From Candidatus Saccharimonadales bacterium (GTDB lineage: Bacteria > Patescibacteriota > Saccharimonadia > QS-5-54-17): a stretch of DNA of 64,000 bases. Below, piece by piece: positions 2,800-60,803 of the stretch. The stretch spans positions 37,330-101,329 of the forward strand of contig JBBDOS010000004.1 of assembly GCA_040876925.1 (NCBI GenBank). Reading direction: 5' to 3'. The notes under the pieces are model-generated. The model was not told the DNA's origin and did not search any database. It was given only the letters and a program-made list of their open reading frames with translations. Every line of letters begins with the position of its first letter. Positions within the stretch are counted from its first letter, which is position 1. Both the position numbers and the translations under genes were made by a program.

Positions 2800-2835
2800 A
2801 AGTTATTATCCTGAACCTATAAACTAAAATCTATA

Positions 2836-3921
2836 ATGCCAGCTAGATTAGACTACATACTATTATTTAGTACTTTAATTCTTTGCTTGATAGGGGTTAT
2901 AGTGCTGCATTCTATCAATGTACGCGATCCCAGCCTGCTACAAGGGTTTAATCCATCATGGCAACTAATAGCCCTGTTGATAGGTTCAATAGGTCTCATA
3001 TTATTTATGAGGATGGATTATCATATATTAGCTAGAATAGCTCCTTTGTGGTATGGAGTTGGTGTTTTATTGTTAGTCTTGGTGTTATTTTTTGGTGAAG
3101 CAGTTAGTGGATCAACTAGAGCTCTAAGCTTCGGTGTAGTAGAGTTTCAGCCGGCTGAAATTGCCAAAATGGGCATGATATTATTATTGGCTAGTTACTA
3201 CAATAAAAACTCCAATAAATTACATAAATTAAATACTTTATTTATATCAATGATTATTACAGCAGCGGTGGTGATCTTAGTATTTTTACAACCAGATCTA
3301 GGTACCGCTATAGTACTGTTGATTATCTGGGCTATGATAAGTTTTATGGCTGGTATTAGACGTAGCTTTCTAGTGGGGTTGGCTTTAATTGGTTTAATAG
3401 CTCTACCAGTTGCTATTCAAGTACTAGAACCTTATCAGCAAGCCAGACTAGAAACGTTTTTTGATCCCACCGCTGATTCTCAGGGCCAGGGATATAACGT
3501 TGATCAATCAATGATAGCTATAGGCTCTGGTCAGTTATTTGGTAGAGGCTTGGGTGGAGGAACTCAGAGTACTCTCAACTTCTTACCGTCTCAACACACT
3601 GACTTCATATTTGCTGTTATAGCTGAAAAGCTAGGGTTGATAGGAGCATCTTCAGTACTAATACTCTTCGGATTATTACTGTGGCGAGGGTTTGTGATAG
3701 CTTGGAGGGCTAGAGATAGCTTCGGGGCTTTACTAGCTTCGGGTATAACCACTATGTTTTTGGTCCAAATAGTTATTACTATCGGTATGAATCTAGGTAT
3801 AGCTCCTGTAACTGGTCTGCCGTTACCTTTTTTAGCATACGGTGGCACCAACTTAATAATCAGCCTTCTAGCTGTTGGTATATTGCTAAATATATCCAAA
3901 AACTCATTATCTAATGCTTAA
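2836..3921 (+). CDS. rodA: SEDS family peptidoglycan glycosyltransferase (RodA/FtsW family)
   Basis: 361-aa polytopic membrane protein with the conserved SEDS C-terminal region (...GGTQSTLNFLP...PFLAYGGTNLII). A second SEDS gene lies in the dcw cluster (ftsW), so this copy is probably RodA. The RodA/FtsW assignment is an inference. Confidence 0.6.
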   Translation: MPARLDYILLFSTLILCLIGVIVLHSINVRDPSLLQGFNPSWQLIALLIGSIGLILFMRMDYHILARIAPLWYGVGVLLLVLVLFFGEAVSGSTRALSFGVVEFQPAEIAKMGMILLLASYYNKNSNKLHKLNTLFISMIITAAVVILVFLQPDLGTAIVLLIIWAMISFMAGIRRSFLVGLALIGLIALPVAIQVLEPYQQARLETFFDPTADSQGQGYNVDQSMIAIGSGQLFGRGLGGGTQSTLNFLPSQHTDFIFAVIAEKLGLIGASSVLILFGLLLWRGFVIAWRARDSFGALLASGITTMFLVQIVITIGMNLGIAPVTGLPLPFLAYGGTNLIISLLAVGILLNISKNSLSNA

Positions 3922-3939
3922 TGAAAAGTATCTTAGGAA

Positions 3940-4257
3940 TTAAGATTTGATATCAGTTATCTTGATAGTGCTATAGTTTTGCCTGTGACCGGTTTTCTTA
4001 GATACTCGTTTCTTAGCTTTGAACTTAAAGATAGTTATTTTATCACCCTTAACTCTTGGTTCAACAACTTTAGCTGTGACTTTCACGCCTTTAACTGTAG
4101 GGGTGCCAATTTGCACGCTTTTATCGTCCTTATCATCAAAAACCAATAGAGGGTCAAAGCTTAGTTGTTTCTTCACATCTACTAGCTCTATATTGAATTC
4201 TTGGTTTTTGGCAACCAAATATTGTTTGCCACCAGTTTCTATAACTGCTTGCTTCAT
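3940..4257 (-). CDS. rplU: 50S ribosomal protein L21 with basic C-terminal extension
   Basis: MKQAVIETGGKQYLV... matches the L21 N-terminus (AVIxTGGKQY). C-terminal KKRVSKKTGHRQNYSTIKITDI is the L21 hallmark. Confidence 0.9.
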   Translation of the reverse strand: MKQAVIETGGKQYLVAKNQEFNIELVDVKKQLSFDPLLVFDDKDDKSVQIGTPTVKGVKVTAKVVEPRVKGDKITIFKFKAKKRVSKKTGHRQNYSTIKITDIKS

Positions 4258-4464
4258 AATTTATTGATTCTCTTTCTTATAAACAATCGTATCATATCCT
4301 AACAGTATTACTTAGCGGTGTAAAGACCACACCAGTATTTTACTGCTTGCTATGATGATCTGTAGTTTGTTCCTGAGGTTTTTAACATTAACTACTAGTG
4401 CTTAGCCTATGCTAAAATATCAAAGAGCAATAACTTATAAAGAGAGGTTAGTAGAAATATAAAA

Positions 4465-5256
4465 ATGGCAACTAATATCATTGCTATAGCCAATCAAAAA
4501 GGTGGAGTAGGCAAGACCACTACCACTATTAATACTGCTCATTACTTAGCTATGGCTGGTAAGTCGGTGTTAGTAGTGGATTTGGATCCTCAAGGTAATA
4601 CTACTAGCGGTATGGGGCTAGATAAGCATAATCTAGACAAAGATTTGTATCACGCCCTACATGATTTTAGTGTGACTCATCAGATTCTAAAAACTACACC
4701 CCATAACGTATCCATCTTACCAGCCTCGCCGGTATTAGCTGCTGCAGAGGTGGAGCTAGTTAACCTTGATTCTAGAGAATACCGCTTAAAAAGCGTTCTT
4801 AACCAGTTAGATTTTGATTATGTGTTAATAGATTGTCCACCATCGCTAGGATTACTAACTATTAATGGTCTAAGTGCAGCTGAGCATGTACTAATACCTG
4901 TACAAGCAGAGTATTTTGCCCTAGAGGGCTTGGGGCAACTACTGCAGACTATAGAGATGGTTAAAAAAGGCCTTAATCCAAACCTAGATTTACTAGGTGT
5001 AGTACTGACTATGCACGCTGGTAGGACAACATTGTCAAACCAGGTACACGCAGAGGTTCACAAACATTTCCCGGGCCAGGTTTTTGACGAATTTATACCG
5101 AGAAATGTACGCTTAGCTGAAGCACCCAGCTATGGTCAGCCTATACATCTATATGATAAGCGCAGTAAGGGGGCCAAGGCGTATAAGAAGTTTTCTAAAG
5201 AGCTAATGAAACGAGTTGATAGTAAAAAAGGAGGCAAGAAGAATGGTGGCAAATAG
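4465..5256 (+). CDS. parA: chromosome partitioning ATPase ParA/Soj
   Basis: Deviant Walker A (KGGVGKTTT); ParA/MinD fold; directly upstream of parB. Confidence 0.9.
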   Translation: MATNIIAIANQKGGVGKTTTTINTAHYLAMAGKSVLVVDLDPQGNTTSGMGLDKHNLDKDLYHALHDFSVTHQILKTTPHNVSILPASPVLAAAEVELVNLDSREYRLKSVLNQLDFDYVLIDCPPSLGLLTINGLSAAEHVLIPVQAEYFALEGLGQLLQTIEMVKKGLNPNLDLLGVVLTMHAGRTTLSNQVHAEVHKHFPGQVFDEFIPRNVRLAEAPSYGQPIHLYDKRSKGAKAYKKFSKELMKRVDSKKGGKKNGGK

Positions 5257-6841: not shown

Positions 6842-8236
6842 ATGAGTAAGAAACAACCAAAAATAAGTAGCGACAGCCAAGAGGATATGCTTACATATGG
6901 ACTGCCAGATCCAGACATAGATGAACCATCTAAACGCCGGCGAAGACCGAGGAGTAAGAGGTTCTTCACTAAAAAACGCGTAGTAATAGGTATTAGCAGT
7001 TTCTCGGCTGTATTTGTAATAGTAGGGGCTATAACTGCTTGGTTTCTTTATTCAAATGTAATTTTCACTAATCTAGGGGATGATATATTTCAAGGAGAAG
7101 CTGATCCTAGCACATTGCGTGGTGAGGGGGATGGGCGAATTAATATTATGTTGCTTGGTATAGATAATGCTGCAGATCTAAGCGACAGTATTATGGTAGC
7201 CTCCTTGGACCCTATAGCTAAAGATGTAGCTTTATTGTCTATTCCCAGGGATCTATGGGTGGATATACCTGGGTTCGGGTCTGCCAAGATCAATGCAGCC
7301 CATGCTTTTGGAGAACGTTATGGTTATGAGGGCGGCGGTCCAGCTCTGACCAAGGAAGTGCTAGAAGATATTCTAGATATACCGATTCATTATTATGGCA
7401 CAGCTAATTTTGAAGGCTTTAATGAGGCCATAGACTTTATAGGTGGTATAGAAGTGGAGGTTGAAGAGGATATAGTGGATTATTCTTATCCAGCTGAAAA
7501 TAATGGCGGGTTTGATCCTTTCATAATACGTAAGGGAGTTCATCAAATGGATGGAGAAACAGCTCTAAAATATGCTCGCTCCAGATACTCTACTAGTGAT
7601 TTTGACAGAAGTAAGAGACAGCAGTATATCTTAGCAGCTCTTAAGGATAAGGTTTTATCTCTAGGAACTCTATCGAATCCTATTAAAGTAGCTAATTTGC
7701 TTCGATCTTTTAGTCGCAATACTGATACCGACCTAAAGCTAGAAGAGATCATGAGGTTGGTTGAGATTGCCAGAGAAATAGATACAGAAGATATGACCCA
7801 AGCCCGATTAGACGCCTCAGAAGATAATTTCTTAACATTTAGTAATATATACGGACAATCAGCCTTAGTTCCATCTGCAGGAGATTTCTCAAATATACAA
7901 GAATATGTCAGAGGGCTATTAATTGATAGTTATATCAAAGATGAGGCAGCCTCTCTAAGCATTCTTAATGGCACCCTTCAGGAAGGTCTAGCTACGGAGA
8001 CAGCAGCCTTACTTAGAAGTTTCGGTTATGGTGTAGATAATATTAACAATGCCTCTGCTCGTGACTATGAACAAACTGTTATCTTTGATTATAGTGGTGA
8101 TAAACCTTATACACTAAGGTACTTAGAGAAGCGTTTTGGAGTGAAGGCATTACGACGCGACCCTCCTATCGGTGATGAGCAGACATATGATATAGAGATT
8201 GTAATAGGAAGCGATTATGCCTCTACTATTAACTGA
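6842..8236 (+). CDS. LytR-CpsA-Psr (LCP) family cell-envelope phosphotransferase
   Basis: N-terminal TM anchor, then LCP domain motifs (MLLGIDN...SDSIMVASLDP...LSIPRDLWVDIPG...KINAAHAFG, YARSRY). Confidence 0.85.
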   Translation: MSKKQPKISSDSQEDMLTYGLPDPDIDEPSKRRRRPRSKRFFTKKRVVIGISSFSAVFVIVGAITAWFLYSNVIFTNLGDDIFQGEADPSTLRGEGDGRINIMLLGIDNAADLSDSIMVASLDPIAKDVALLSIPRDLWVDIPGFGSAKINAAHAFGERYGYEGGGPALTKEVLEDILDIPIHYYGTANFEGFNEAIDFIGGIEVEVEEDIVDYSYPAENNGGFDPFIIRKGVHQMDGETALKYARSRYSTSDFDRSKRQQYILAALKDKVLSLGTLSNPIKVANLLRSFSRNTDTDLKLEEIMRLVEIAREIDTEDMTQARLDASEDNFLTFSNIYGQSALVPSAGDFSNIQEYVRGLLIDSYIKDEAASLSILNGTLQEGLATETAALLRSFGYGVDNINNASARDYEQTVIFDYSGDKPYTLRYLEKRFGVKALRRDPPIGDEQTYDIEIVIGSDYASTIN

Positions 8237-9010: not shown

Positions 9011-10168
9011 ATGGGCTTGTTGCGATATAACCCCCAAAACTGCTACGCTTATATTATGATTAAAAGTAAGATGGTCTGGCTAGGAGTATCTTTGGTTATT
9101 GTAGTGTCGTTCATCGGCGGCATTATCGGTGGTTTCTTGGGTGTGGGGGTTTTAGACGAGATACTGTTTGACACAGACCGCTCCAGGGATGTCATATTAC
9201 AAGAGAGTTCAGCTATTATTGATGTAGTTAATCAATTAGAACCTAGTGTAGTTAATATTACATCCGAAGGAGTTCCTAGGTATGATATTTTTGGGCATGA
9301 ATTTGAAGGTAGGGGTGGTGCAGGAACAGGGATTATTATATCTGAAGACGGCTTAATTATTACCAATAAACACGTTGCACCAGAGAATAGTAGCATAGCG
9401 GTAACTTTACATGATGATACTTTCTATGAAGATGTTGAAGTAGTAGCACGTGATCCATTTAATGATATAGCCTATTTGCGCATCGATAGCGACAAAGACT
9501 TAATACCAGCTGAATTAGCCGACTCTGATAAGGTTATAGTGGGCCAGAAAGCGGTGGCTATAGGTAATGTATTAGGTAGGTTTAGCAACACTGTTACTAC
9601 TGGTATTATATCGGCCATTGGTCGTCCAGTTGTAGCTGCTGGTGACGGCATAGAAGCAGAGAGTCTGGAAGGACTATTTCAGACAGATGCAGCTATTAAC
9701 CCCGGCAACTCTGGAGGTCCGTTAGTTAATGTTCAGGGGCAGGTTATCGGTATTAATACTGCCGTAGCTGGTGGAGTAGACAACATAGGGTTTGCTATAC
9801 CAATCAACCAAGCTAAAGGTGGTATTGCCAGTATTTTAGAAAATGGCAGGTTAATAAAACCTTTCTTAGGTGTTAGATATATAACCCTTAACGCTCAAAC
9901 AGCTCGCAGCCAAGGTATAGATATCGACAAGGGAGCTCTTTTAGTAGGCGATGATGAGGCCGGCGCTATTGTTGAAGATTCTCCCGCAGAAGCAGCTGGT
10001 TTGGAGGCTGGTGATGTAATAGTTAAAGTTGATGATGTTGACGTCAATAGGCAGCAACCTCTATCAGTTATATTGGGTAGATATAAGGCTGGAGATAGTT
10101 TAGAACTAGTAGTTATCAGAAATGATCAAGAGTTAAATATTGAGGTTGTTTTAGCAGAATTTAAGTAA
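9011..10168 (+). CDS. htrA: HtrA/DegP family serine protease with C-terminal PDZ domain
   Basis: TNKHV (His), D (Asp) and GNSGGPLVN (Ser) catalytic triad boxes; PDZ-like C-terminus. The true start may be the internal Met (MIKSKMVWLG...). Confidence 0.88.
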   Translation: MGLLRYNPQNCYAYIMIKSKMVWLGVSLVIVVSFIGGIIGGFLGVGVLDEILFDTDRSRDVILQESSAIIDVVNQLEPSVVNITSEGVPRYDIFGHEFEGRGGAGTGIIISEDGLIITNKHVAPENSSIAVTLHDDTFYEDVEVVARDPFNDIAYLRIDSDKDLIPAELADSDKVIVGQKAVAIGNVLGRFSNTVTTGIISAIGRPVVAAGDGIEAESLEGLFQTDAAINPGNSGGPLVNVQGQVIGINTAVAGGVDNIGFAIPINQAKGGIASILENGRLIKPFLGVRYITLNAQTARSQGIDIDKGALLVGDDEAGAIVEDSPAEAAGLEAGDVIVKVDDVDVNRQQPLSVILGRYKAGDSLELVVIRNDQELNIEVVLAEFK

Positions 10169-10999: not shown

Positions 11000-12075
11000 G
11001 ATTGCTGTTTCTTAAGTTCTAAATCAGCAGACTTTAAGGCCTGAATTATTTCATCGATATTACCTTCCATAATCTTGGCTAAATCATGAGTAGTAAAGTT
11101 AATTCGGTGGTCGGTTAATCTATCTTGAGGGAAGTTATAGGTCCGTATTTTCTCTGATCTATCGCCAGAACCTATCTGATTTTTGCGTTGGTCAGCTCTG
11201 GATTTTTCTTCCTCTTCAATTTTCATAGCCAGTAAGCGAGAACGCAAGACACCTAGGGCTTTTTCTCGGTTCTTGTGCTGGCTTTTTTGGTCCTGGCAGC
11301 TAACTACCATCCCAGTTGGTATATGGGTAATACGTACTGCAGAATCGGTAGTGTTAACTGATTGCCCGCCTGGTCCAGAGGATCGGAAAACATCAACTCG
11401 TATATCAGACTCTTGGATCTCAATATCATGCTCCTCAGCCTCAGGCAATACCGCTACAGAGGCTGTAGAAGTATGCAGACGGCCGCTAGACTCTGTAGCG
11501 GGAACTCTTTGTACTCTATGAACACCTGATTCAAATTTAAGCTCACCATAAGCACCTTTGTGATCTATAGAGAAGCTAATTTCCTTAAACCCACCAGCAT
11601 CAGAATGGCTTTCATTGATTAGTTCTATTTTCCAGTTTTTCATTTCGCAGTATTTGATATACATACGATAAAGCTCACCAGCAAATAGGGAGGCTTCATC
11701 GCCACCAGCTCCTGCTCGGATCTCTACTACAGCTGCTTTATCATCATTAGGGTCTTTGGGTATTAGAGCTGCTTCCAACTTTATTTCATACTTATCTAAT
11801 TCAGCTTCAAGCTCAGCCAGCTCAGCTTCTGCTAGTTCGGCTAACTCCTCGTCATCCCCATCAACCATAGCCCTAGTACTATCAATACTGCTATTTAACT
11901 CATCTATCTGTTTAAAAATATCTAGTACTTCTCCTATATCACTATGTTTTTTAGCCACTTGTTGTCCTTCATCAGTGGTATAGATACTAGGATCTTCTAG
12001 CCTTTTGCTAAGAAGATCGTATTCAGCTTGTAGTTTGTCTCTCTTGTCTTCCATTAGTTTATAAGTATAACGCAT
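10996..12075 (-). CDS. prfA: peptide chain release factor 1
   Basis: GGQ motif (GPGGQSVNTTDSAVRITHIPTG) and the RF1-specific PAT tripeptide (RVPATE). Confidence 0.93.
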   Translation of the reverse strand: MRYTYKLMEDKRDKLQAEYDLLSKRLEDPSIYTTDEGQQVAKKHSDIGEVLDIFKQIDELNSSIDSTRAMVDGDDEELAELAEAELAELEAELDKYEIKLEAALIPKDPNDDKAAVVEIRAGAGGDEASLFAGELYRMYIKYCEMKNWKIELINESHSDAGGFKEISFSIDHKGAYGELKFESGVHRVQRVPATESSGRLHTSTASVAVLPEAEEHDIEIQESDIRVDVFRSSGPGGQSVNTTDSAVRITHIPTGMVVSCQDQKSQHKNREKALGVLRSRLLAMKIEEEEKSRADQRKNQIGSGDRSEKIRTYNFPQDRLTDHRINFTTHDLAKIMEGNIDEIIQALKSADLELKKQQS

Positions 12076-12168
12076 AAAACCTTCTAAGAGCAGCCACTCA
12101 GATAATCAAGGAACTATCTTAATGATTAGTAGCTATAAACAATCTAAGTTTATCTTAAGGGTTTATCT

Positions 12169-12486
12169 CTAGTTTTTTAGGTCTGCTAAGCTTTTTTTAG
12201 AGTTGGACTTCTTGCCGGTTTTCTTATTAGTATTGTCGCCTTGCTTTTTCGTAGCTTGCTTACTTTTGGATTTGGCTTTTTTACCAGCAGCAGCTTGTTT
12301 AGCGCGAAACCTATCAACACGCCCAGCTACATCAACTAATTTTTGCTTACCTGTATAAAATGGGTGGCAGTTAGAGCATATCTCTACCTCTATTTTGCTG
12401 GTTGTAGCACGAGTATTAAAGCTGTTACCACAACCATTGCAGGTGATGGTGGCATCAACATATTCTGGATGTATATCTTTCTTCAT
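12169..12486 (-). CDS. rpmE: 50S ribosomal protein L31 with about 40-aa Lys-rich C-terminal extension
   Basis: MKKDIHPEY..., CxxC...CxxCHPFYTG zinc ribbon, then a [13 protein letters not shown]... tail. Confidence 0.88.
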
Positions 12487-30463: not shown

Positions 30464-31723
30464 ATGAAACACAATATTAAAGAAATAACGCTCAAGAATG
30501 GAGCTAAGGGACTACTTATTAATGTGCCAGGAGCTTCGGTAGTGAGAATGTTAGTCGAGTTTCGGGCGGGATTTGATCTAGGCAGTCAAGATAAGTATGA
30601 GTTACCTCACGTTACAGAGCATATGATGTTTACTAATAAGGCTTATCCAAAGCCTAGAGCTTTTTCTAGAGAGATTGAAAAGAACGGCGCTATTAATAAC
30701 GCTTCCACAAGTTCTACTAGCCTAAAGTATTTTTATGAATGTGCTAACTTTGAAGCAGAAAGGATAGCAGATTTGCTATCTATTCAAATAGCTCAACCAC
30801 TTTTTGACGAGAAAGAACTAAAAACTGAACTAGGTAACGTAGCCGAAGAATTAAGTTCTTATATATCCAACCCAGCTTACGCTAGCGGCTATAACTTAAG
30901 GGTTGCTGCTGAAGGGGAGCCCACTTTAGAAACTAGAATAGAGCAACTATCTAGCGTTAAAGCTGAGGATCTATATAGCTATTATGATAAAACTCACTCA
31001 GCCGATAATATGCGCTTTATTATTGCAGGTGATCAAGGGTTAGAATCTATATCAAATCAGCTTGCTGAATCCGGCCTAAAATCAGGCAAGAGATTAGATC
31101 TGCCAGAGATTCCTACCAAGCATGTAGATAAACCAGTAGTTGAAATTAGGGATATACCGCAAATTTATTACCAGCTCTTTAGCGCTCACAACAAACCTTT
31201 GAGTTACAGGCAGTTAGTAGCTGCTAGGATACTATCAGGATTGTTATCCGATGGTTTCAGTTCTACTTTACTAGGTTTAGCTAGAGAGAAGGGTTTGGTG
31301 TATGGTATGTACACCGATATAGAGTCAAGTAACTATAACTCTGGATTTATGATGGGTGGCTCCGTATCGCCTAGTAATATCGATGAATATATTGATTTAG
31401 TTGTTGATGAGATAAGCAAGGTTCTAAGAGGCGAGGTAGATGCCGACCACTTTGAATCTACTAAGAAGCTATTACTAGGCCAGCGAGCTTTGCAGTATCA
31501 GAAACTAAGTAATTTAGTTAGTTATTACGATTCTTACTTTACTATAGGGTATCAGCCATTTAATGAATTTAATAAGCTTATAGAAGAAGTTAGTTTAGAG
31601 GAGGCGATCCAGGAGTTTAACAAACTGTTTGCTCAAAAAACCTGGGGGGTTAGCTTCTTAGGTAATATAGATGATAAGCAGGCTGCCAAACACTACAAGA
31701 AACTAGCTAGTATCTGGAGATAG
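30464..31723 (+). CDS. M16 family (pitrilysin/insulinase-like) zinc peptidase
   Basis: Inverted zinc motif HxxEH (HVTEHMMF) near the N-terminus; two-lobed M16 architecture. Confidence 0.75.
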   Translation: MKHNIKEITLKNGAKGLLINVPGASVVRMLVEFRAGFDLGSQDKYELPHVTEHMMFTNKAYPKPRAFSREIEKNGAINNASTSSTSLKYFYECANFEAERIADLLSIQIAQPLFDEKELKTELGNVAEELSSYISNPAYASGYNLRVAAEGEPTLETRIEQLSSVKAEDLYSYYDKTHSADNMRFIIAGDQGLESISNQLAESGLKSGKRLDLPEIPTKHVDKPVVEIRDIPQIYYQLFSAHNKPLSYRQLVAARILSGLLSDGFSSTLLGLAREKGLVYGMYTDIESSNYNSGFMMGGSVSPSNIDEYIDLVVDEISKVLRGEVDADHFESTKKLLLGQRALQYQKLSNLVSYYDSYFTIGYQPFNEFNKLIEEVSLEEAIQEFNKLFAQKTWGVSFLGNIDDKQAAKHYKKLASIWR

Positions 31724-31993
31724 AACACAATTTAATTAGCGTAATAAACCCCAGTGATTTATAAAAGTATTCAAATTATTATTTAGGGATAAAATACTTT
31801 ACTCAAATTATATATTATCCATACTTAGTTTACTTGACAGTATGGTATAAAAATGTTAATGTTTTAATATCTATTCGTAAAGTGTGAGGTGGAGACCAAA
31901 GCATTTACGACCCTAGAGGTCTTTGACAAGCTACATATTTGTAAATTATATCTGTTATATTAAGATATTGTTCGCTATTTAGTATATGTAGTT

Positions 31994-32046
31994 CAAAAGC
32001 AGAACACTGTAGGCTATTTAAGGTTGTCTTTAGTGTTCTGCTTTTG
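31994..32046. other. long hairpin in the 560-bp noncoding region (15-bp perfect stems CAAAAGCAGAACACT / AGTGTTCTGCTTTTG, 23-nt loop)
   Basis: Inverted repeat seen directly. Could be a terminator for the M16 gene or a structured RNA element. Confidence 0.4.
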
Positions 32047-32151
32047 GCTTATATGCTAAGAGCAATATTTAAGTGACCGATATGTATTTTTGTATTTTTC
32101 CATAACTTTAAATGTTTCTTCTTCTATAGAGGCAAGGAGCAGCACTGTATT

Positions 32152-32172
32152 GCAAACTATTAATTAGTTTGC
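32152..32172. promoter_or_regulatory. palindrome GCAAACTA-ttaat-TAGTTTGC (8-bp arms) at the left edge of the island
   Basis: Perfect inverted repeat seen directly; candidate operator or protein-binding site. Confidence 0.35.
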
Positions 32173-32238
32173 GGTATGTTGCTGTTCCTTACCCTGTGGG
32201 GGTCCGAGGAAAGGTAGTTAGAAAGCCTAACTACCCTT

Positions 32239-32258
32239 GATGCATTAACATGCATCAC
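32239..32258. promoter_or_regulatory. palindrome TGATGCAT-taac-ATGCATCA (8-bp perfect arms) 27 nt upstream of island ORF1
   Basis: Perfect inverted repeat immediately upstream of the GGGGGAG RBS and ATG at 32285; candidate operator. Confidence 0.4.
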
Positions 32259-32284
32259 AGCAGACTCCCAGAAGGGGGAGAGAC

Positions 32285-32731
32285 ATGACTGTCGAGAACA
32301 ACACCAGGCCAATCACCAACGCCGAGATGCGTGAGCGGTTCGATCACTTCGAGCAGATTCTTGAGCGCAGGAGTCGGTGGTATCGTTTGCGTAGCTGGTT
32401 CAGTACTCGTAATGAGGGTCGAGCCAGGCTCAACAAAACCAGTCTCCGTGAGAGACTGGCAAACAGAGATTCCGTTCAGCTGAACGGCAAGCTGCTTCCA
32501 TTGGCTGTTAGCGCAGTCCTTGGTTTGCTAGCTGGTTGGATCGCTGTCCGGATCGGTCTGAGTCTTTCCGACCGAGTTGCTGAAATTGCTGGTACCAGCC
32601 TTGGCTGGCTGGCTCTTCAGCAGATCGTCATCACGATTTTGGCGATACTCATCGGTATCTACACGTTTCGATGGGTGCTGAACTACTTCAAGGAAGACCA
32701 ACTCGAGGAATCTAACAACGATTCCTCCTGA
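32285..32731 (+). CDS. hypothetical 2-TM membrane protein encoded in the GC-rich island
   Basis: 148 aa with a basic N-terminal region (RRSRWYRLRSWFSTRNEGRARL) and two hydrophobic helices. Strong RBS. Confidence 0.6.
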   Translation: MTVENNTRPITNAEMRERFDHFEQILERRSRWYRLRSWFSTRNEGRARLNKTSLRERLANRDSVQLNGKLLPLAVSAVLGLLAGWIAVRIGLSLSDRVAEIAGTSLGWLALQQIVITILAILIGIYTFRWVLNYFKEDQLEESNNDSS

Positions 32732-32753
32732 AGATCACCAAGGAGGTGACAGC

Positions 32754-33845
32754 ATGAAGCGCATATTGGCGCTAGTCGGGGTGCTGCTGCTAGTTGCAGC
32801 CATCCCGCTCGTCACCATCTTTGGTGGTGACGATGAACCCGTCATTGATCAGGCTGAATCCGAAGTGGAGTCAGAGCCTGATCCCGAATCAGAACCCGAA
32901 CCAGAACCCGAACCAGCATCCGAATCAGGGTGTCTGACGTGGGAATCGGTTGAGGGTAACCACGACAACAACAGGTGGTTTGGTGATGGCATTGCAAGCA
33001 TTCTAGAAGCACAAACGCGTGAGGATGCTCGTAATGCAGCCGATGAATTCTTGGGGCTGGTTAAGCACCATCCCAACCTACTCGTGGCAACGACTCGTTA
33101 TTTCCTTGACCGTGAGGTTGAGGCAGTTGAGTTGTTCGATCGAGACGACTGTGCTACAAATGAGGCTGAAGTTCTCGTAGCTGAACTAGAGATAGTTCTG
33201 GCCGCGAGTGATATCTCAGTTGATGAAGCACCGTCTGATGGGTACAACTCTGGTGTAGATGAGCATGGAACGGCTGGTGTATCAACTCACCCCGGAATTA
33301 CTGGTAACCGTCAGGCTATCAAGATTGTGAAGCCTGATGGTACGGTGATTTGGATTATGGGTAGGTGCGGTAACATCGTCGTTACTGAGCCTCCGCCAGA
33401 TCTACCCGAGGTTCCAACAGATGAACCGCCTCCGAAGGAGGTCAAGGACCCAAGCGAGGATGTTTTGTTGAATCCAGACGTCCCAGATAGGGTTCGAGGT
33501 CCATCTGGAGGAAGTGGGTGCGGTGATAAGCCCTGTGAGGTTGATGCTCCTGAAGCTGATCCTGACAGGACGCCGCCGTCAACCGACTCTCCTGAACCAC
33601 CACCTCCAGAACCTGGCGGCTATGAGCAGCCAGACTCTTCTGATGGTGGAGGTTCTCCTGGCGGTGGAGACGATTCAGTCGTTTCTGAGCCAGATGATGA
33701 TGCAGATGACAACCCCGAGCAGGATGACTCTAAGGAGCCATCTCCAGGTACGTCATCTGACACTTCCAACGATGCTGATTCAGACGACGCAAAGACGCCT
33801 GAGTCAGACGAAACCAATCAGTCAGGAGATCCTGGAATGCCCTAG
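32754..33845 (+). CDS. secreted/anchored acidic Pro-Glu-Ser-Asp-rich protein encoded in the GC-rich island
   Basis: N-terminal signal/anchor (MKRILALVGVLLLVAAIPLV), then an (EPEP)n linker, a globular segment with Cys residues, and a long acidic/proline low-complexity tail. No LPxTG. Confidence 0.6.
   Translation: MKRILALVGVLLLVAAIPLVTIFGGDDEPVIDQAESEVESEPDPESEPEPEPEPASESGCLTWESVEGNHDNNRWFGDGIASILEAQTREDARNAADEFLGLVKHHPNLLVATTRYFLDREVEAVELFDRDDCATNEAEVLVAELEIVLAASDISVDEAPSDGYNSGVDEHGTAGVSTHPGITGNRQAIKIVKPDGTVIWIMGRCGNIVVTEPPPDLPEVPTDEPPPKEVKDPSEDVLLNPDVPDRVRGPSGGSGCGDKPCEVDAPEADPDRTPPSTDSPEPPPPEPGGYEQPDSSDGGGSPGGGDDSVVSEPDDDADDNPEQDDSKEPSPGTSSDTSNDADSDDAKTPESDETNQSGDPGMP
32852..32927 (+). repeat. 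tandem hexanucleotide-type repeats encoding the (S/E-P-E/D)n linker
   Basis: GAGTCAGAGCCTGATCCCGAATCAGAACCCGAACCAGAACCCGAACCAGCATCCGAATCA seen directly. Confidence 0.6.
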
Positions 33846-34131
33846 CGGCTCACCAGCGGTTTCCTATGAGTAATGGAGATACATGGATCATATCGGGTCA
33901 CTGCGTGCTACTGGGGCAATCTTTTGTTTTAAAGGGCTAACACCTCTTTGATAAAAAACAAAAGACCCCCAGTAGCCGCATTACCCTAAATAGTTTTCAA
34001 ATATGTAGTTTGTTGAAGTGTAAATCCTAGAGGGAAAGAGCACATTAATAAGCCAAACCTAGAGAAGAGATACATTAAACAATTAGAAACTTTTAGTATT
34101 TTAAGTAAATTCCCTATGAAAGGAGAATGAT

Positions 34132-35439
34132 ATGAATATAAGAAATATATTAAACTATATCAGCTATGTTCCTAAGTCATTTACAGCTATAGCCGCAGCA
34201 CTTGTGGTTACTGTAATGCCTATAGCAACTATGGCTGGTTTTGGTCCGGATAGACCAACTTTTAGCATTAACGATCCAGCAGATTACGTAACTTTCAACT
34301 CTATTACCGATAATCCAAATTATGGTGATGAGAGATACTTCTTTGATGGTAAGCCTGCTAGTGACACTAGTACAGGCGGCTTCTCTGACCCTATAGAAAT
34401 AGGTGATTTAGACGATGGTGATGAGCTATTGCTACGTGTATACGTACACAACAACGCCAAAGAAAGTCTAAACGATAGCGGTGAAGGTATTGCCAAGAAC
34501 ACTCATGTTAGAGTAGATCTACCTAACAATACCGATAGATCACTACGTGCTACTGCTAGCATTTCAGCTGATAATGCTAACCCAGGTACGGTATATGACA
34601 CATTAGACTTTACTAGTGCTAATAGACCATTCAACCTAGATTACGTTGCTGATTCAGCTGTGATTCATACTAATGCTGTGCCAAGCGGTATGAATCTAAG
34701 TGATGACATCATCACTTCTAACGGAGCTAAGATAGGATACGATAAACTTAATGGTGAAGTGCCTGGATGCTTTGAATTTACAGGTATAGTAACCTTAAAG
34801 GTTAAAGTTAACAAAGCGGACGTAGAAGTCGATAAGTTTGTTCGTAAGCTAGGTGAAACTGAGTGGAAAACTGAAAATAATGCTAAGCCTGGAGACACGC
34901 TTGAGTATTTGATACGCATGAAAAACTCAGGTAGCACTACTCTTAAAGATGTCATGGTAGGCGATAATCTACCTAAGTACACTTCATATGTAGAAGGCAC
35001 CACTATGTTGAAAAACATGAACAACCCTAACGGTATTAGTATCGACAACGATAATATTACCAAGGGAGGTATCAATATAGGTCACTATGAACCTGGATCT
35101 GTAGCGTATGTATGGTTCCAGGCCAAAGTCGATCCTGTAGGAGTATTCGATAAGTGTGGAGACTATACTATCCGCAATGTTGGCGTAGTACGTCCTGAGG
35201 ATATGAATGAGTTCTTCAACACTGCAGATACCAATGTCACTATTAAGTGTGAAGTGACTCCGACAGGTGCACCTCCTGAAGATGTTCCTGAAGATGTTCC
35301 AGAAGGCGTTCCAGAAGAATTGCCACAAACTGGTATAGGTGGCATCTTCGGTGGATTGATAGGTAGTGGAGCTCTAGGTATCGGCTTAAGAAGCTGGATA
35401 GGTTCCAGAAGGAAGTTTATCGACTCTTTAATGAGTTAA
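34132..35439 (+). CDS. cell-surface protein with DUF11-like repeat domain and C-terminal LPQTG sorting signal
   Basis: N-terminal signal region. A DUF11-like segment (KPGDTLEYLIRMKNSGSTTLKDVMVGDNLPKYTSYVEGTT) lies at about 34837-35122. A PEDVPEDVPEGVPEE linker precedes LPQTG (35320-35334), followed by the hydrophobic IGGIFGGLIGSGALGIGL and a basic RSWIGSRRKF tail. Confidence 0.8.
   Translation: MNIRNILNYISYVPKSFTAIAAALVVTVMPIATMAGFGPDRPTFSINDPADYVTFNSITDNPNYGDERYFFDGKPASDTSTGGFSDPIEIGDLDDGDELLLRVYVHNNAKESLNDSGEGIAKNTHVRVDLPNNTDRSLRATASISADNANPGTVYDTLDFTSANRPFNLDYVADSAVIHTNAVPSGMNLSDDIITSNGAKIGYDKLNGEVPGCFEFTGIVTLKVKVNKADVEVDKFVRKLGETEWKTENNAKPGDTLEYLIRMKNSGSTTLKDVMVGDNLPKYTSYVEGTTMLKNMNNPNGISIDNDNITKGGINIGHYEPGSVAYVWFQAKVDPVGVFDKCGDYTIRNVGVVRPEDMNEFFNTADTNVTIKCEVTPTGAPPEDVPEDVPEGVPEELPQTGIGGIFGGLIGSGALGIGLRSWIGSRRKFIDSLMS
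35275..35316 (+). repeat. tandem 12-mer repeats (CCTGAAGATGTT x2, CCAGAAGGCGTT, CCAGAAGAA) encoding the PEDV linker
   Basis: Seen directly in the coding sequence just before the LPQTG motif. Confidence 0.55.
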
Positions 35440-35671: not shown

Positions 35672-36742
35672 ATGTTAAAGAATCTAAGAATTAAGAACTA
35701 CATTTTAGTTATAGCTTTGTTTCTAGCTGGTATATTAGGAGTTGTTAGTATAGGTAGCTCTTTTGCAGCTAGTGATAATGATATTGTTTATGGTGGTGTT
35801 TCTAATCAAACTGATCTACGCAACAAGTTTAATAATGGCGATGGACACAACTCAGCTGCTAATATCCAAGCCATCTATCGTGAAGCTATTGGCGTAAAGA
35901 AATCTACTGAAATGAGCGGTATGAGCTGGGGCTATGTTTACCGTGACGGTAGGGTGGTAGTTGATGGTAAGACGGTAGCCACTAATGCTAAAAGCTCAGG
36001 TAGATTAAACTTCCGCAACTCTAAACCATTGGGTGATACCGGTGCTTTCTACCATGATACCGATATTCGCTTCAGTTCAGGCACTAATAAGCTACGTGCA
36101 CTAATAAAGCTCGATAGTAATGGTAAGTATAAGTTTGCTGTTATAGCTAATTGTGGTAACCCAGTTATTGCTAAACCAGTTCCAGTTCCTGAGCCAGACC
36201 CAGAACCTGAGCCAGACCCTGAACCAGAACCAGAACCAGAACCTAAGCCTGAACCTAAGCCACAACCACAAGCTAGCTTCGTGTGCGATAGCTTAAGTAT
36301 TAATAAGCAACAGGTTAATCCTGGTGATAGAGTTGTCTTTACAGCTAGTTCTAGCAGGAATAACACTAGCCTAGAGGACTACAGCTACCATTTCGGTGAC
36401 GGTGAGGTTCTAACTACTAGACGTAATATGATTTCATATAGTTACAGCGAGCCAGGTACTTACACAGCTTATGTCATAGTTAATACTGATGCCGGCAGTA
36501 CTCAGCCAACCAGTATTTGTGAAGTAACCGTGCAGGTATTAGCTGAGGAAATACCAGAAACACCAGAAGAGTCTACATCTGAGCCAAAAGCACCAGAGAA
36601 GCTAGAAGAAGCTCCTGAAGAGCTAGCGCAAACAGGTGTTGGTAGTGGTTTACTAGGTCTAATGGGTAGCGGTATTCTAGGTGCTACTGTCCAAGGCTTT
36701 AGGATGACCCGCAAAAAGTTTCTAGACACTATATTGGGCTAG
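35672..36742 (+). CDS. cell-surface protein with PKD-like domain and C-terminal LAQTG sorting signal
   Basis: Signal peptide (ends ...SSFAASDN). A PVPVPEPDPEPEPDPEPEPEPEPKPEPKPQPQ linker is followed by a PKD-like segment (YHFGDGEV...EPGTYTAYVIVNTDAGS, about 36278-36542). The tail carries PEEL-AQTG (36623-36637), the hydrophobic VGSGLLGLMGSGILGATV and the basic RMTRKKF. Confidence 0.8.
   Translation: MLKNLRIKNYILVIALFLAGILGVVSIGSSFAASDNDIVYGGVSNQTDLRNKFNNGDGHNSAANIQAIYREAIGVKKSTEMSGMSWGYVYRDGRVVVDGKTVATNAKSSGRLNFRNSKPLGDTGAFYHDTDIRFSSGTNKLRALIKLDSNGKYKFAVIANCGNPVIAKPVPVPEPDPEPEPDPEPEPEPEPKPEPKPQPQASFVCDSLSINKQQVNPGDRVVFTASSSRNNTSLEDYSYHFGDGEVLTTRRNMISYSYSEPGTYTAYVIVNTDAGSTQPTSICEVTVQVLAEEIPETPEESTSEPKAPEKLEEAPEELAQTGVGSGLLGLMGSGILGATVQGFRMTRKKFLDTILG
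36170..36270 (+). repeat. tandem hexanucleotide repeats encoding the (PE/PD/PK)n linker
   Basis: GAGCCAGACCCAGAACCTGAGCCAGACCCTGAACCAGAACCAGAACCAGAACCTAAGCCTGAACCTAAGCCACAACCACAA seen directly. The opposite strand gives the spurious (GS)n ORF 36049-36366. Confidence 0.65.
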
Positions 36743-59557: not shown

Positions 59558-59659
59558 TCAAAATTCGACACACATTAATAGAGGGTAGCATAAGAGTAAC
59601 TAGATATAGTAAGATAGTGATTATAGAGTAAGTATTTATTTAAAAAGAGTAACAAAACT

Positions 59660-60628
59660 ATGGCTGATGAAGTACAACTACGCGGTGGATCAGAATCAGA
59701 GAATGATGCTTTCACTGGCTTAGATCGTGAAGTTACAGTCGATACTACTAATAAGACACTTAGAATACATGATGGTACAACAGCTGGAGGGTCTAAACTA
59801 CCTGCCTATGATGAATGGGGTAGGTTACAAGTAGCTGATCCGGTAAATGATACTGATGCTGCAAGTAAAGGGTATATAGATGATAATACTGCTTCTTTCA
59901 ATACAGGTACTGAAGCAGAGCGTGACGCCGCCGACCCTAAACCTGAATACTGGTGGAATACAGATACTTCAAAGCTAGAGCGATGGAACGGTTCGACGTG
60001 GGACGTGATTGGACCCGCTGGCGGCGTAGACGTGCAGACGTTCGCCGCGTCCGGCACCTGGACCAAGCCCGAAGGTGCGACCGACGCAAGCCTGGTAGTG
60101 GTCGAGCTAGTTGCGGGCGGTGCAGGCGGCAGCACCGACGGAGGAGGCAGCTATTCAGGCGGTGACGGTGGTTCCGCTATTCACGGAACTTTTCGCGCAG
60201 GTGAACTATCGGCTACCGAAAGCGTTACCATTGGAAGCGGCGGAAACGGCGCGGTGACCGGAATAGGTGCGGCCGGTGGGGACACAACGTTTTCCAACCT
60301 GCTACGCGCCTTCGGCGGACTAGGAAACGCTAGCAACGGCGGCGGCGCTGGCGGTGCTGGAGACGGAAGCAAGGGCGGAAATAACTGGCCGAAAGTCAGC
60401 GACGGCGGCGCTGGAAGTTCTATTGGCGGCGGCGGCGGCGGCCGAAATGGCGGCGGCGCGGGCGGCACATCCTACAGCGCAGGTAACGGCGGCGCAGGCA
60501 ACAACGCCGGAAGCGGTGCAGACGACGGATCGATCCCTGGTGGCGGCGGCGGTGGCTCTGACGCAGCTGGCGGCGGTAACGGCGGCGACGGCGCACGCGG
60601 CGAGGTCCGCGTCATCACCTACCTCTAG
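59660..60628 (+). CDS. phage tail-fibre-like protein with glycine-rich C-terminal domain (compositionally chimeric ORF)
   Basis: 322-aa ORF. The N-terminal motif (VQLRGG...FTGLDREVTVDTTNKTLRIHDGTTAGGSKLP, at 59672-59795) resembles the conserved N-terminal box of phage tail fibre / hyaluronidase-like proteins. GC switches from about 40% to 65-70% near 59990. The C-terminal 210 aa are Gly/Ala/Ser/Asn/Asp-rich (GGAGGSTDGGGSYSGGDGGS...GGGGGGRNGGGAGG) and end GEVRVITYL. Confidence 0.65.
   Translation: MADEVQLRGGSESENDAFTGLDREVTVDTTNKTLRIHDGTTAGGSKLPAYDEWGRLQVADPVNDTDAASKGYIDDNTASFNTGTEAERDAADPKPEYWWNTDTSKLERWNGSTWDVIGPAGGVDVQTFAASGTWTKPEGATDASLVVVELVAGGAGGSTDGGGSYSGGDGGSAIHGTFRAGELSATESVTIGSGGNGAVTGIGAAGGDTTFSNLLRAFGGLGNASNGGGAGGAGDGSKGGNNWPKVSDGGAGSSIGGGGGGRNGGGAGGTSYSAGNGGAGNNAGSGADDGSIPGGGGGGSDAAGGGNGGDGARGEVRVITYL
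60425..60442 (+). repeat. (GGC)6 trinucleotide microsatellite within the Gly-rich coding region
   Basis: GGCGGCGGCGGCGGCGGC seen directly; further imperfect GGC/GGT runs lie at 60536-60560. Confidence 0.7.
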
Positions 60629-60794
60629 GAGGCTGACTATAGCACGCGCAGCACTACTGATTAGTAAGTAGCTCGTATTAGTTATATCCTACTTATTTTC
60701 TACCAGTGTACTCAGATGAAACTATAATACTTTAAAACTAATAGGAACTTGATAGATTTTAGATTATTTTAGCTGTTTAAAATAGTTACTTTTA

Positions 60795-60803
60795 TGGTAT
60801 AAT
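60795..60803 (+). promoter_or_regulatory. extended -10 promoter element TGgTATAAT upstream of mraY
   Basis: TG at 60795-60796 and TATAAT at 60798-60803, about 37 nt before the mraY ATG. A weak -35 lies in the A/T-rich region upstream. Confidence 0.5.

Follow-up and report, generated by a model that had tools for sequence, protein, structure and literature searches.

A GC-rich envelope gene unit bracketed by complementary arms in a Saccharimonadales genome

The DNA analysed here, a stretch of 64,000 nucleotides referred to as the window, comes from a Candidatus Saccharimonadales bacterium (contig JBBDOS010000004.1, positions 37,330 to 101,329). Within it, two co-directional genes, P1 (32285-32731) and P2 (32754-33845), form a GC-rich unit ahead of genes for sortase-anchored surface proteins. 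With modest confidence, the unit can be read as a vertically inherited, Saccharibacteria-specific envelope operon, the mRNA of which is GC-rich, closed on itself, structured and under selection at the level of RNA. Each of the ingredients has precedents; what appears to be undescribed is the combination of a protein family, a covarying bracket and a maintained, locus-specific base composition. No description of this module was found in the literature. All features of the unit described below are on the plus strand.

Composition and descent of the unit

An annotation made earlier from the sequence alone, here called the first-pass annotation, had noted a rise in GC from about 40% to about 54% at roughly 32140-33900. 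Windowed GC confirms the rise: it is 0.522 at 32151-33950 against a background of 0.394 ± 0.032 in 300-nt windows, a difference of 13 points, and the highest 300-nt value elsewhere in the window is 0.477 when the listed GC-rich runs are left out. GC at third codon positions (GC3) is 0.61 in P1 and 0.44 in P2, or 5-12 standard deviations over the 0.327 ± 0.024 of the 41 other genes of the window, among which the maximum is 0.384. Therefore, the compositional shift is not merely an amino-acid effect. The non-coding DNA of the unit is also GC-rich, at 0.48 for 32129-32284 and 0.46 for 33846-33985, compared to 0.27-0.29 for adjoining non-coding DNA. The boundaries are sharp, with GC-richness starting at a leader hairpin (32131-32193) and stopping at a 3' stem-loop (33907-33976).

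The same unit is found in relatives, and a metagenome scan contributed 51 further loci to the comparison. Another metagenome-assembled genome (MAG) of the same species, L001, carries the same locus at 99.1% nucleotide identity; divergence from the window is about 1% over the aligned 10 kb, without an excess of differences within the island. In a far more distant relative, L011, the SecA, prfB and M16 proteins are 67%, 56% and 41% identical to those of the window, and the gene order is SecA, M16, a gene of 93/127 aa, a gene of 159 aa with two transmembrane (TM) helices, a member of the P2 family, DUF11, PaaX and prfB. The island of L011 therefore holds the position between SecA-M16 and DUF11-prfB that it holds in the window, and its three genes have a GC3 of 0.61-0.68 as opposed to 0.34-0.43.

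More broadly, a DUF11 homologue, 35-51% identical, directly follows the P2-family gene (the family gene) in about 30 loci, and it does so in nearly every locus of sufficient length; the two genes are co-oriented in all of the about 30 loci that have both. The gene that usually precedes the family gene, its partner, is co-directional, and its product combines two TM helices with a charged N-terminus and an acidic tail. The GC3 of family gene and partner tops that of the flanks by 0.1-0.35 in most loci, as in L017 (0.56 vs 0.25); it equals that of the host in a few, and in L002 and L007 the unit is below its host (0.31-0.35 vs 0.46). Given L061, a high-GC contig with GC3 of about 0.7 throughout, the order SecA-x-MurD-547 aa-family gene and a family gene of host composition, high-GC relatives of the lineage exist. 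No empty M16-DUF11 site was found; a genome scan anchored on M16 reached no more than two distant loci, in which the genes are ordered differently.

The unit has diverged together with its neighbour. Over 26 loci, the distances between pairs of family domains correlate with those between the matching DUF11 N-termini (Mantel r = 0.52, p <= 0.0005), and nearest neighbours are concordant between the family gene and DUF11 for all close pairs, with the family gene evolving some 2-3 times (about 2.5) faster. Synonymous changes in the family gene were polarised in five independent sister pairs, giving 57 AT-to-GC and 60 GC-to-AT changes. With numbers that are small and polarisation by parsimony, this balance makes the elevated GC3 look stationary and not decaying.

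A phage or mobile origin was rejected, given that the P2 family had no match in viral contigs, that PHROG matches for the unit's proteins were insignificant and that the bracketing-arm sequence described below gave no exact matches elsewhere, or a handful judged likely to be due to chance. The window itself contains no tRNA, no integrase or transposase match, and direct repeats at chance level only.

The first-pass annotation had interpreted the unit as laterally acquired. This is not borne out by the GC-rich unit at the same position in L011, the linkage to DUF11 in about 30 loci, the co-divergence and the balanced synonymous changes; orthologues at the same locus and with the same composition do occur in relatives. 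The unit is very probably a conserved, vertically inherited operon and no recent island. A sharply bounded GC island of orphan surface genes would, in an epibiont genome, suggest transfer, yet here it is a feature that the lineage has conserved and apparently maintains.

Leader, bracketing arms and folding of the transcript

An extended -10 promoter, TTGACA-N14-TGnTAnnnT, is invariant across an alignment of 16 loci; in the window, which is one of the 16, it occupies 31834-31862 (-35 TTGACA at 31834-31839, TG at 31854-31855 and -10 TAATGT at 31857-31862). A simple promoter scan missed it because its -10 hexamer matches at only three of six positions. This conserved promoter is about 60 nt upstream of the left arm of an inverted repeat that brackets the unit, and the left arm therefore lies in the transcribed leader. 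Between promoter and left arm, a conserved leader block, AAGTGTGAGGTGGAGACC (31880-31897), aligns with AAGGTGTGAGGACC of other loci; further copies in the window are chance-level matches only.

The left arm in the window (31921-31949, 29 nt) is 83% complementary to the right arm (33990-34018), which precedes the DUF11 start codon by about 115 nt, or by 119 nt for its 24-nt core (33990-34013). The duplex is predicted at -30.8 kcal/mol, compared to -10.1 ± 2.8 for shuffles, and ranks first among 54 intergenic pairs within 5 kb. Consensus arms are present in about 25 of 33 usable loci: TTAACAAGTCAGATCATTACAGTGCATGTC on the left, to which the left arm of the window is equivalent in position, and GACATGCACATTGTAAYGATCTGATTTGTTA on the right. 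In these loci, the family gene has a single plus-strand copy on its upstream side and a single minus-strand copy on its downstream side, and copies elsewhere in the locus are almost absent. The arms are 26-30 nt long, the left one in the leader and the right one after the stop codon of P2, mostly 83-121 nt ahead of the DUF11 ATG in 24 other loci. For the loci with consensus arms, GC is 0.50-0.60 within the bracket and 0.35-0.42 outside it.

Covariation supports the pairing of the arms. In an 18-locus alignment, a 26-pair helix is 94.8% paired and seven of its pairs have compensatory changes; none of 500 shuffles equals it, and slid controls reach 40% at most. Four loci (the window, L011, L020 and L039) have arms that depart from the consensus in sequence yet are complementary, and those of the window have co-varied while leaving it. 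L002 and L007 have no bracket, and neither a GC excess nor a folding excess. The arms are likely to be a real paired or co-evolving element. An uptake sequence was rejected, as the arm core occurs just twice in 64 kb, and dif/Xer or integron attC sites were rejected by eye because the arms are inverted and not dyad-symmetric.

Two observations concern the right arm and its surroundings. Its 5' part (GACATGCAC) could also pair locally with an upstream segment, GTGCGTGTC, that is similar to the 3' part of the left arm (alignment A6; L047 6880-6915, for example), which suggests alternative pairings. The 5' region of DUF11 contains conserved blocks of its own, TTTAACAA..GGCAACAATG and a hairpin, TTTGATTTTATCTGCGAGATAAATCAA, right before the Shine-Dalgarno sequence (alignment A6; L045 about 7380-7410, for example), and the version in the window is diverged.

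The leader and the 3' end also contain local hairpins. Where the leader is AT-rich, a perfect stem-loop of 15 bp (31994-32046) is surrounded by windows that fold with z = -7.8 and -5.3. The 63-nt hairpin at 32131-32193 folds at -39 kcal/mol and is the longest local inverted repeat in 64 kb. A long hairpin is found at the same place in 13 other loci, so that 14 share it with the window included; its base, GRAGCAGCRC...GYGCTGCTCC, is conserved and its apex is variable. The base pairs are maintained, three of them by A-U to G-U changes, and RNAalifold on a MAFFT alignment of the hairpin recovered only six base pairs at its foot. Three further hairpins, at 32213-32235, 32238-32257 and 32265-32280, are present in both the minimum free energy (MFE) and centroid structures of 32120-32290, a region that folds with z = -8.07, and the last of them pairs the purines of the Shine-Dalgarno sequence. 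Past the P2 stop codon, a stem-loop with 25-nt arms (33907-33976, z = -5.0) has no U-tract after it, and no canonical terminator with a U-tract was found between that stop codon and the right arm.

Two perfect palindromes in the leader had been proposed as repressor operators. Both are present, GCAAACTA-n5-TAGTTTGC at 32152-32172 as reported and TGATGCAT-n4-ATGCATCA at 32238-32257, one base away from the position first assigned. The operator function, which predicts a dyad adjoining the promoter and conserved in sequence in orthologues, does not fit. The palindromes are about 290-400 nt downstream of the conserved promoter, and therefore in the transcribed leader, and the unit has no regulator gene; any cognate regulator would act in trans. 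The first palindrome is the apex of the 63-nt hairpin, which varies in sequence while pairing is kept. Given a conserved hairpin base and variable apex within the leader, the palindromes are best read as leader structure and not as promoter operators. A lone perfect 8-bp hairpin is unremarkable; the window has 23 of them, compared to 6.9 ± 2.9 in shuffles, and six are within 32152-32820.

The transcript body folds beyond the expectation from composition or codon usage. By dinucleotide shuffles in 120-nt windows, the mean z of the unit in the window is -2.25 vs -0.87 outside it, and in 12 of 14 loci the unit has an MFE z of -1.4 to -3.1 vs -0.2 to -0.7 for the flanks, L002 and L007 being the exceptions. 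When synonymous codons are permuted within genes, the family gene has a mean gene z of -5.1 and the partner one of -3.3, compared to -1.3 for flanking genes. In 11 of 12 loci, folding is stronger on the sense strand than on the antisense strand (paired Wilcoxon p = 2e-8). A known RNA family was rejected: Rfam gave nothing at the gathering threshold in 31700-34150, where only microRNA noise (E about 1) appeared, and only tRNA-Glu in seven related loci.

In the mechanism proposed, the leader arm would pair with the arm beyond the P2 stop codon within one transcript. Such pairing would close the mRNA, in the manner of rRNA processing stalks or of known pairings between 5' and 3' untranslated regions (UTRs), and the GC-rich, hairpin-rich body and closed ends would be kept by selection on RNA. 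The most likely benefit would be an unusually stable or RNase III-processed message for envelope proteins. This RNA-level account of the arms and the composition is tentative and slightly less likely than not. If selection on RNA does hold the unit 15-30 GC3 points above its genome, base composition would here, unusually, be set by the structure of an mRNA. The conserved promoter, the leader hairpin and the covarying bracket, together with the locus-specific composition, can be tested directly in genetically tractable Saccharibacteria strains.

A bolder extension of the mechanism is rather doubtful: that Saccharibacteria have a class of "armoured" mRNA, in which the P1-P2 transcript is an rRNA-like unit. 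The long-range helix would close it and RNase III would excise or cap it, and its high GC and dense folding would result from selection, either for extreme stability or because the RNA has a second role that is non-coding. If so, envelope messages for host contact could persist in cells unable to make nucleotides, and a GC-rich gene flanked by inverted repeats at 59660-60628 would be another instance.

Several points weigh against the favoured reading of a vertically inherited operon with a closed mRNA. Read-through from the P2 stop codon to the right arm is assumed. The arms are near-invariant across very divergent loci, which is more than pairing needs; counts of G-U and A-C in the helix show no clear strand preference, with two inherited positions dominating, and roles at the level of DNA, for instance inversion or looping bridged by a protein, are compatible with inverted repeats as well. 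Part of the folding excess could stem from low-complexity Pro/Gly/Ser/Asp coding, or from GC heterogeneity within genes, which codon permutation erases. The two extra GC-rich genes of loci of the L047 type sit outside the bracket and are divergent from the unit. BLASTP and hhalign found no homology between P1 and the partner genes of other loci. Finally, L017 and L022 have DUF11 proteins that are 73% identical, family domains that are about 32% identical and a different GC3, and cassettes may occasionally have been replaced, both between these two and in L002 and L007.

Known systems and alternative explanations

Pairing between the 5' and 3' UTRs of a single mRNA is known for icaR of Staphylococcus aureus, where it is RNase III-dependent, and for hbs of Bacillus subtilis. 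As in those messages, a segment of the unit's leader is complementary to a segment past the stop, and the duplex is long enough for RNase III. Unlike in icaR and hbs, the helix of the unit is 26-30 bp, is far from the Shine-Dalgarno sequence, encloses two genes over 1.5-2.9 kb, and is conserved with covariation across the whole class together with a GC-rich, over-folded body; its pairing is predicted here, and cleavage would be a further prediction. The processing stalks of rRNA operons, which are cleaved by RNase III (PMC6582327), offer a second likeness: long-range inverted repeats flank a GC-rich, structured RNA of 1.5-3 kb in an AT-rich genome. Unlike that of rRNA operons, the RNA enclosed by the unit encodes two proteins, and Rfam finds no known RNA in it.

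The alternative that survives best, although unlikely, is that the locus is a site of cassette exchange comparable to Neisseria minimal mobile elements or capsule-locus switching. Promoter, leader and arms would then be homology anchors, by means of which competent Saccharibacteria swap genes between lineages of different GC. Exchange would suit a composition that is decoupled from the host in both directions, upward in L017 and downward in L002 and L007, as well as the contrast between DUF11 and family domain in L017 and L022, partner genes that are non-homologous across lineages, and the existence of high-GC genomes with the order SecA-MurD-family gene, such as L061. However, the ratio of family to DUF11 distances is roughly constant, at about 2-3, in all close pairs, as under fast vertical divergence. 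There is no near-identical cassette in distant hosts, the closest relative of P2 outside its own species being less than 50% identical among 15 billion proteins. Exchange also leaves the excess of RNA folding and the complementarity of the arms unexplained.

GC-biased gene conversion, acting in place of RNA selection at a hotspot of recombination where surface proteins diversify rapidly, is improbable and ranks behind exchange. GC-richness starts and stops where the transcript body does and does not extend into the surface gene next to it. Folding exceeds that of composition- and codon-matched controls and is biased to the sense strand, and L022 and L026 have a folding excess with little GC excess. 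To our knowledge, a shift of 20-35 GC3 points is far larger than those reported for biased gene conversion in bacteria. What conversion would accommodate is a family gene evolving about 2.5 times faster than its neighbour, the several contigs that break in the family-gene tail, the GC-rich non-coding DNA of the unit and the stationary GC3. Saccharibacteria are, in addition, naturally competent (PMC10633639; this Tn-seq paper leaves sortase, LPXTG and GC content unmentioned).

Lower again in probability is an invertible segment for phase variation, in which the promoter outside the left arm would no longer drive P1 and P2 after inversion, turning them off. The hin, Mu G segment and cwpV-type switches are such invertons, and the unit is like them in having inverted repeats of 20-30 nt, here around 1.5-2.9 kb, with the promoter just outside one repeat. 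The strong conservation of the arms is as for a protein recognition site, and phase variation typically targets surface proteins. Unlike invertons, the unit is in one orientation across about 30 assemblies and has no linked recombinase, other than an unrelated integrated element in L013. Each arm is asymmetric, without a dyad, and neither the GC-rich, over-folded body nor the sense-strand bias is accounted for by inversion.

The least likely rival, and a very improbable one, is a recent lateral island from a higher-GC donor with repressors binding the two palindromes: the unit does share with horizontal islands a marked deviation from the host genome, sharp boundaries, surface cargo, a P1 that is an ORFan except for self-matches and, in many loci, a nearby tRNA-Glu, but its position, content and anomaly are conserved in divergent relatives and not sporadic, it co-diverges with its neighbour, with nearest neighbours concordant for close pairs, its synonymous changes are balanced and its composition looks stationary, the window has no integrase, tRNA target or direct repeat to go with it, no viral contig carries the family, and the palindromes are in the transcribed leader, the first as the variable apex of a conserved hairpin.

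Encoded proteins and surrounding genes

The two open reading frames (ORFs) have the features first described for them, and they contain no mobility genes; neither P1 nor P2 has a match that reaches the threshold in Pfam, NCBIfam or PHROG. P1 (148 aa) has an Arg-rich, charged N-terminal region, two TM helices and an acidic tail, and is predicted to be a small protein in which the two helices form a hairpin and the N-terminal region lies in the cytoplasm. A sequence search with P1 matches only itself. It resembles the partner genes of other loci in architecture and position and, lacking homology to them, is termed an architectural analogue only.

P2 (363 aa) is N-terminally anchored and extracytoplasmic, with an EPEP linker, an alpha/beta domain at about aa 55-215 and a disordered, Pro-rich and acidic tail. 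A word-indexed search returned P2 itself (99% identical, from a Ca. Saccharimonadales MAG) and one 40%-identical protein, and a profile search with its domain returned 420 representative clusters, 119 of them at E <= 1e-30. All named members are from Saccharibacteria or Saccharimonadales. Family members begin with an N-terminal TM anchor and a low-complexity linker, after which come a domain of about 160 aa that terminates in W.M.RCGNPV...P.GPTD.PP and a disordered tail; the acidic type of tail seen in P2 is found again in some members. A Pfam scan of 88 family members matched none of them. An AF2 model of the P2 domain is confident, with the fold deriving from coevolution in the family alignment, and it has no relative in the PDB; as modelled, this is a previously undescribed alpha/beta domain with no solved relative.

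Directly downstream of the unit is a gene of host-like composition for an LPQTG-anchored DUF11/CLIPPER surface protein (34132-35439; Pfam PF01345), the conserved neighbour in other loci. The gene after it (35672-36742) encodes a PKD domain and an LAQTG sorting signal. The first-pass annotation was thus right to place sortase substrates downstream, and its description of a membrane and surface-protein cassette of unusual composition, beside those substrates and with structured DNA upstream, is supported. The unit sits in, and is tightly linked to, a locus like the sortase-dependent loci of monoderms, with their LPXTG, DUF11/CLIPPER and PKD proteins. Unlike monoderm sortase substrates, P2 has an N-terminal anchor, and its C-terminus, ...NQSGDPGMP, is without the LPXTG sorting signal that both neighbours have.

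The N-terminal domain of the PKD protein ends in ...F.V.A.CGNPV...P, a motif that it has in common with the P2 family, and a CGNPV-type motif is also present in a 245-aa protein upstream of the L002 family gene. Homology of P2 to the PKD neighbour over the full domain was rejected, since only the 25-residue CGNPV motif aligns (hhalign probability 85%); an hmmsearch match between the two overstated their relationship.

From topology and linkage, P1 and P2 probably act at the surface together with the linked, adhesin-like DUF11 protein, and the cassette is a plausible candidate host-interaction factor. A large uncharacterised envelope family, linked to a sortase-anchored adhesin-like gene, is a concrete candidate for work on the poorly understood surface of these epibionts.

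The surroundings of the unit differ among loci. A tRNA-Glu(TTC) gene lies on the opposite strand, 240-1300 nt to the left of the left arm and with its 5' end facing the unit, in nine of ten loci checked: L014, L017, L022, L026, L037, L045, L047 (3406-3480), L056 and L013. The window and L011 lack it. Between tRNA-Glu and promoter, L047 has two more GC-rich genes on the minus strand (3742-4490; 127 and 121 aa, with no TM helix), and ORFs like this pair are also present in L048, L052, L054 and L057. In L013, an ORF for a large serine recombinase (about 2290-4002) abuts the tRNA-Glu gene just upstream of the unit. L009 has a GIY-YIG gene between family gene and DUF11, and an IS200/IS605 Y1 transposase 2.8 kb downstream (9366-9620 and 11807-12436). 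Several metagenome contigs (L046, L052, L054, L057, L058, L059 and L061) break off within the family gene, in most cases in the low-complexity tail, and strain-level hypervariability that disrupts assembly is suggested by this.

The window contains a second GC-rich island, at 59660-60628 (GC 0.58), between the genes for an FtsI-like PBP and mraY. It encodes a 322-aa, tail-fibre-like protein with Mtd_N and Gly_rich_2 domains, and the composition switches within the gene at about 59920. At least six paralogues on a single 264-kb contig, and one other gene of the genome analysed here, match the AT-rich N-terminal region (about 75 aa) at 72-78% identity. The GC-rich C-terminus is similar to glycine-rich Rhodobacterales proteins. 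A 17-nt inverted repeat (59586-59602 and 60783-60799) flanks the gene and is the second-best intergenic inverted repeat of the window.

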